DNA from: Escherichia coli
GTDB lineage: Bacteria > Pseudomonadota > Gammaproteobacteria > Enterobacterales > Enterobacteriaceae
Assembly: GCF_003019035.1 (NCBI RefSeq)
Contig: NZ_CP027447.1
Length of the DNA: 64,000 nucleotides
Reading direction: 5' to 3' (one strand)
Shown: one piece after another, positions 45,384 to 45,628 of the stretch
Numbering within the stretch: the stretch's first letter is position 1
How the letters are laid out: the number at the start of each line of letters is the position of its first letter
Notes under the pieces: model-generated
The model's input: only the letters and a program-made list of their open reading frames with translations
The model's database searches: none
Told to the model about the DNA's origin: nothing
Position numbers and translations under genes: made by a program

Positions 45384-45458
45384 ATGGCGAGGGTTTAAGC
45401 AATCGAGCGGCTGTGTACTTACCCCGTAGTCCATTAGCGGGTATACTCATGCCGCATT

Positions 45459-45533
45459 GTCCTCTTAGTTAAATGGATATAACGAGCCCCTCCTAAGGGC
45501 TAATTGCAGGTTCGATTCCTGCAGGGGACACCA
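45459..45533 (+). tRNA. argW: tRNA-Arg (anticodon CCU)
   Basis: GTCCTCTTAGTTAAATGGATATAACGAGCCCCTCCTAAGGGCTAATTGCAGGTTCGATTCCTGCAGGGGACACCA: cloverleaf with anticodon loop CT-CCT-AA, T-loop GGTTCGATTCC, 3' CCA encoded. Confidence 0.9.
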
Positions 45534-45628
45534 TCCTTGTATTTATCCCTAAAACCACATAAAAACCGTAAATTAAATTCGAACTAGCAGGCCGAATAAG
45601 GCACACCCGGAACTCGTGGTTTTATTCA

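Follow-up and report, generated by a model that had tools for sequence, protein, structure and literature searches.

Exactly one tRNA gene lies in the window, that is, the whole 64-kb stretch of Escherichia coli DNA analysed here. ARAGORN places it at 45459..45533 on the plus strand and types it as tRNA-Arg with the anticodon CCT. The cloverleaf of this gene, argW, with its CCU anticodon, matches the Rfam tRNA family (RF00005) with a score of 63.4 bits (E 1.3e-12), the gathering score being 29, and the Rfam scan matched the tRNA alone and no other RNA family. In the ORF map, 45383 is the last position of yfdC, and dsdC, on the minus strand, has its stop codon at 45629, so that 45384..45628 is the exact yfdC-dsdC intergenic region. 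A preliminary description of this DNA had placed dsdC about 95 bp after the tRNA-Arg(CCU) gene; the tRNA searches and the ORF ends bear this out, and the gap measures exactly 95 bp (45534..45628). The locus has the following features:

44451..45383, plus strand: yfdC, formate/nitrite transporter family protein; a 310-aa ORF, annotated in SCU-301 and collinear with K-12 yfdC; the left chromosomal flank.
45419..45447, plus strand: possible argW promoter, TTACCC, a 17-nt spacer and TATACT, then a GC-rich discriminator; read by eye from the sequence.
45459..45533, plus strand: argW, tRNA-Arg(CCU), intact; ARAGORN and Rfam RF00005; 75/75 identity to K-12.
45519..45534, plus strand: the 16-nt core CTGCAGGGGACACCAT, made up of the last 15 nt of argW and one further base; core taken from PMC2951348, and the same as the K-12 attL and attR copies.
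45534..45628, no strand: the 95-bp argW-dsdC spacer, native right flank of attB; 93/95 identity to K-12 DNA between pawZ (attR) and dsdC.
45629..46564, minus strand: dsdC, LysR-type activator of dsdXA, intact; ORF and SCU-301 annotation; the right chromosomal flank.
46782..49468, plus strand: dsdX and dsdA, D-serine transporter and D-serine ammonia-lyase, full length; ORFs of 445 and 443 aa and SCU-301 annotation.

The closest complete genome, SCU-301 (NZ_CP051751.1), is 100% identical over 44400..46700. Its annotated gene order is mlaA, yfdC, tRNA-Arg, dsdC, dsdX, dsdA, emrYK and evgAS, and the tRNA directly adjoins dsdC. Identity to K-12 is 97.9% over 45519..49435. As dsdC, dsdX and dsdA are all full length, the island is in its intact dsdCXA form in this strain and not in the csc form; a csc-type argW island, in which cscBKAR replaces dsdC and the 5' part of dsdX, was ruled out on the same grounds.

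Upstream of argW, the segment at 45419..45447 is a possible promoter judging by its sequence; it agrees with the consensus at 8 of 12 positions, under the 9/12 threshold of a consensus scan that reported no promoter site upstream of the gene. In the 95-bp spacer, consensus scanning found no terminator-like or promoter-like site reaching threshold, and the RNA fold was not better than that of shuffled sequence (z-scores 0.38 and 0.76). The spacer was also considered as a structured RNA or terminator, a candidate that was rejected because its 9-nt inverted repeat, TAAAACCAC/GTGGTTTTA, folds no better than shuffles. argW and dsdC are convergent, and scanning and folding together gave no intrinsic terminator for either gene in 45534..45628.

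The K-12 genome provides the occupied counterpart of this locus. Its annotation (NC_000913.3) runs yfdC, argW, CPS-53 (2466369..2476583, intS to torI), the 15-nt pseudo-tRNA pawZ and dsdC, in line with the earlier statement that K-12 carries CPS-53 with intS at argW between yfdC and dsdC. This element, argW::CPS-53 (KplE1; IntS integrase, TorI excisionase), has the same setting as the window, with the same tRNA gene and 16-nt core, yfdC on the left, and the spacer and dsdC on the right. In K-12, however, a 10.2 kb defective prophage lies between two cores, whereas the window, which has a single core and lacks prophage DNA, corresponds to the attB substrate rather than to the attL and attR products.

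The preliminary description had proposed a pairwise alignment with K-12 across yfdC-argW-dsdC. For this comparison, CPS-53 was excised in silico by joining K-12 through the end of argW to K-12 after pawZ, and the product was aligned to window 44451..46570. The two sequences are collinear, gap-free at and near the junction, and the same base for base at the junction itself. Identity over yfdC-argW-dsdC is 97.4%, and the only 6 gap positions all lie outside the junction region that was printed. Within this alignment argW is identical throughout, and the spacer, with its two differences, finds its counterpart in the attR-dsdC DNA outside CPS-53. A six-way alignment of the junction (window, K-12 attL, K-12 attR, O157:H7 WS4202, strain 1943 and Iso00041) gave the same picture: the tRNA is common to all up to ...GGGGACACCA, after which the sequences diverge immediately, and the window past the tRNA matches the K-12 attR, or chromosomal, flank.

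Searches for a second core copy or a remnant of an integrated element were carried out at several scales. An exact search of the 64-kb window for CTGCAGGGGACACCA, the 15 core nucleotides that belong to the tRNA, gave one site; since the core is single in the window, the copy at 45519..45534 is taken as attB. When up to 3 mismatches were allowed across the whole window, two other sites were found, both with 3 mismatches and about 15 kb off, against a chance expectation of 1.46. A repeat search over 45300..45750 returned only 9-10-nt chance repeats and no duplicated tRNA 3' end. The IntS and TorI proteins of K-12, searched by tblastn through the entire window, gave noise only (best E 1.7). A blastn search with the CPS-53 interior found nothing near argW; its sole match, at 2928..3203, was to a tail-fibre-assembly gene of an unrelated P2-family prophage. 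Between argW and the next core gene there is thus no integrase gene or fragment and no island gene, just 95 bp of native spacer, and the earlier claim that no integrase or prophage genes separate argW from dsdC holds. By contrast, K-12, O157 and Iso00041 carry such genes downstream of argW. The residual att repeat that the preliminary description had proposed to look for was not found in 45534..45628, nor was an integrase fragment or a duplicated tRNA 3' end, either of which it had named as grounds for abandoning its reading. The locus was also considered as a degraded prophage or genomic-island remnant, a candidate that was rejected, as no integrase or island genes lie between argW and dsdC.

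The biology of this site has been worked out in other strains. Panis et al. 2010 (PMC2951348) gave the duplicated core of KplE1 as 16 nt, CTGCAGGGGACACCAT, and showed that KplE1, though defective, is excisable in vivo in K-12 by IntS and TorI. The recombination module, consisting of attL, attR, IntS and a TorI-type excisionase, is conserved in KplE1, HK620, Sf6 and other argW phages (PMC3509656; PMC2951348). Phage Kapi1 is integrated between yfdC and dsdC, with int on the yfdC side, and is flanked by a 17-bp duplication (PMC8787464). In the Kapi1-free strain KP7, a contiguous yfdC-tRNA-Arg-dsdC contig represents the unoccupied form (Pick et al. 2022, PMC8787464). That study reports a Kapi1 att of 17 bp, CTGCAGGGGACACCATT; the window agrees with it at 16 nt and has C instead of T at the 17th position. 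The window resembles the empty KP7 locus in gene order, in the att sequence at the tRNA 3' end and in being unoccupied. It differs in that integration was experimental in the Kapi1 work, while the window is known from its sequence and shares 16 of the 17 att nucleotides. A broader parallel is found in phage lambda attB and in other tyrosine-integrase sites at tRNA 3' ends, where a short core shared by phage and host overlaps the tRNA 3' end and integration regenerates the gene (PMC2951348), although lambda uses another integrase lineage and another core sequence.

Phage sequences point to the range of elements that share this module. When the core plus intS was searched against a phage collection, 25 records covered at least 80% of the query, with about 96-98% identity among those listed. 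Among them are HK620, Sf6, CUS-3, HK633, IME10, Kapi1 and VT2phi_272, the last an Stx2 phage; in several records the matching region carries an attP or attL annotation.

Taken with the published work, this suggests how the site would operate. IntS-family tyrosine integrases would carry out strand exchange at the core, that is, at the last 15 nt of argW and the following T, with an identical attP core. Members of this integrase family are found in CPS-53/KplE1, HK620, Sf6, CUS-3, Kapi1 and a number of Stx2 phages. When a phage integrates, the core copy that it brings in would restore the 3' end of argW at attL, leaving another core beside dsdC at attR. The site in the window should be able to receive such a phage, and we infer its function as an attB from the KplE1 and Kapi1 work in other strains. 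Since there is one core with the native 95-bp flank, no IntS-type element is present, and the tRNA and dsdCXA are intact. The interval is, with very high confidence, an ordinary yfdC-argW-dsdC region in which argW bears a single unoccupied attB. There is no evidence against this reading, and the absence of an element, as judged from sequence, holds for the 64-kb window. The hotspot, the 16-nt core and the empty yfdC-argW-dsdC arrangement have all already been published.

The prevalence of the empty state was assessed with a 185-bp junction query (window 45444..45628), which matches 5,425 of 5,426 complete E. coli genomes. An uninterrupted argW with its 95-bp flank, defined as at least 80% of the query in a single place, was found in 937 of the 5,425 (17%). 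With a 2.3-kb query, contiguous yfdC-argW-dsdC was found in 915 complete E. coli genomes. A query of argW plus K-12 intS was covered to at least 80% in 1,865 complete genomes (34%), which places an IntS-type integrase directly after argW in a third of genomes. The spacer and dsdC were found in 2,735 complete genomes (50%), so that about half are without dsdC altogether and the empty state amounts to roughly one third of the dsdC-positive genomes. An empty argW site is therefore a common variant, present in about one in six complete E. coli genomes, and not an oddity. Empty junctions in other genomes are 94-100% identical to the window, some with small indels, which suggests that the empty state is present in divergent lineages.

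The variable island between argW and dsdCXA or csc, and argW as its hotspot, are described in Jahreis et al. 2002 and Moritz & Welch 2006, as these are cited in PMC4366372 and PMC8787464. The window shares this hotspot downstream of argW and represents the variant with intact dsdCXA and no insert. In csc variants, cscBKAR replaces dsdC and the 5' part of dsdX, either with an integrase element (WS4202, Iso00041) or without one (1943), and the window has none of these genes. Three genomes lacking dsdC were inspected, and all three carry csc sucrose genes at argW:

O157:H7 WS4202, downstream of argW: intS, a P22-like remnant, cscBKAR and a truncated dsdX.
Strain 1943, directly after argW: cscBKAR and a truncated dsdX, with no integrase.
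Iso00041, downstream of argW: an island with another tyrosine recombinase, then csc.

Iso00041 carries a second type of element at the argW 3' end (16255..20657 of the Iso00041 sequence examined), with a 428-aa tyrosine recombinase that is 32% identical to IntS. Besides the recombinase, the island encodes small HTH proteins and a replication-associated protein of the rolling-circle type; the csc genes come after it, and it may be a phage satellite or an integrative element. At least two integrase lineages are thus found at argW: IntS and this 428-aa recombinase, only 32% identical to it. Outside E. coli, the exact 31-nt empty junction was found in one contig only among 100,044 species-representative genomes, an exact match being too strict for other Escherichia species. 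This contig, NZ_JAHZMP010000156.1, belongs to the Terrisporobacter mayombei DSM 6539 assembly, is 486 bp long and has 0.8x coverage. Terrisporobacter is a member of the Firmicutes, and the contig is almost certainly E. coli contamination.

Other mobile and variable elements are present elsewhere in the window. The window is collinear with SCU-301 over 14884..64000, with one single-base indel, while 1..14883 is absent from SCU-301; among the complete genomes searched, none spans the window from end to end. The segment absent from SCU-301 belongs to a P2-family (P88/Xuanwuvirus-like) prophage, of which it forms the right part; it is 92-96% identical to such prophages and phages, and accounts for the different prophage that the preliminary description had placed elsewhere in the window. 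Its genes include those for tail fibre, invertase, tape measure, sheath, tube, gene D, ogr, hok and a DNA methyltransferase. The prophage is inserted in the 5' end of pdxB and ends at 14883. The elements to which the text now turns are:

14884..14903, minus strand: the pdxB junction core, AAAATCCTTGTTGATGAAAA, covering pdxB codons 2-7; GTG start at 14906..14904.
26235..28236, plus strand: a Septu type I anti-phage system of two genes, between smrB and a yfcO-type fimbrial operon; PADLOC and Pfam.
41976..43223, plus strand: a 415-aa ORF in the place of yfdF, with fadL and mlaA on either side; very low G+C, 35.7% over 42001..43000.

Because the insertion lies within the 5' end of pdxB, the prophage separates the gene from its native promoter and start codon. 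In another lysogen, 160-11H1, the same 20-nt repeat flanks a prophage of about 35 kb, and there the integrase adjoins the displaced body of pdxB, which is annotated 8 codons shorter. In the Septu pair, PtuA (452 aa) matches PADLOC PDLC00271 (E 3.6e-168) and Pfam AAA_21/AAA_23, and PtuB (219 aa) matches PADLOC PDLC00344 (E 2.2e-94). In RefSeq the two bear no more specific labels than 'AAA family ATPase' and 'hypothetical protein'.

Returning to argW, a site that has never held a prophage and one from which a prophage was precisely excised would have the same sequence. The 'pristine attB' of the preliminary description is an unoccupied, remnant-free site with a single core, but a never-occupied history is indistinguishable in sequence from precise Int/Xis excision, which is scarless. 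The loss of a prior IntS-type prophage by precise IntS/TorI-mediated excision, with attB restored, is a possible though rather doubtful history of this locus. It would give exactly the sequence observed, and turnover of the site is plausible, as KplE1 is excisable in vivo despite being defective (PMC2951348) and one complete E. coli genome in three carries an IntS-type integrase at argW, so that gain and loss are probably frequent. Precise excision is scarless by definition and so leaves no positive evidence, and the empty junctions of other genomes, which at 94-100% identity and with small indels suggest divergent lineages, fit an ancestral state too.

Two readings that would deny a truly empty site are far harder to sustain. 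The spacer could be viewed as the decayed remnant of an integrated element, and the site as scarred, since argW is a hotspot at which remnants are common, including CPS-53 in K-12 and the P22-like element in O157. None was found here, and this view is refuted for practical purposes by the 93/95 identity of the spacer to K-12 DNA that lies beyond attR and outside CPS-53, together with the lack at the site of a duplicate core, of similarity to IntS or TorI and of any match to the CPS-53 interior. An assembly artefact, in which a prophage was collapsed between two cores, is hardly conceivable either: short-read assemblies can break at prophage junctions, as in the case of strain MP1, which was split in the Kapi1 paper (PMC8787464), but a 16-nt repeat is too short for collapse, and the same junction occurs in 937 complete-level assemblies, one of them identical to the window across 44400..46700. 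The unoccupied attB at argW is therefore the reading retained. That selection, rather than chance, has kept this empty attB beside intact dsdCXA in the lineage is very unlikely. Conceivably, a prophage inserted beside dsdC might carry a cost; a regulatory link between DsdC and a prophage in K1 strains is reported in PMC9659370. Alternatively, the resident Septu system and the P2-family prophage would exclude IntS-type P22-like phages.

On its own, the argW finding is a correct point of annotation, ordinary and of little weight. For the strain, it means an intact argW with a predicted free attB for IntS-type temperate phages (the P22-like HK620, Sf6, CUS-3 and Kapi1, and some Stx2 phages), and a D-serine utilisation locus in its intact form instead of the csc sucrose variant. 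This may be of use in strain typing and in predicting where such a phage would lysogenise.

A further variable position lies upstream of mlaA. The 415-aa ORF at the yfdF position has no Pfam or PADLOC match, and its collinearity with K-12 yfdF is confined to the 3' part, beginning at about 42660. Gene length at this position also varies between genomes, being 1248 nt in the window and Iso00041, 1032 in O157, and 1059 in K-12 and strain 1943. The ORF looks like a hypervariable allele.
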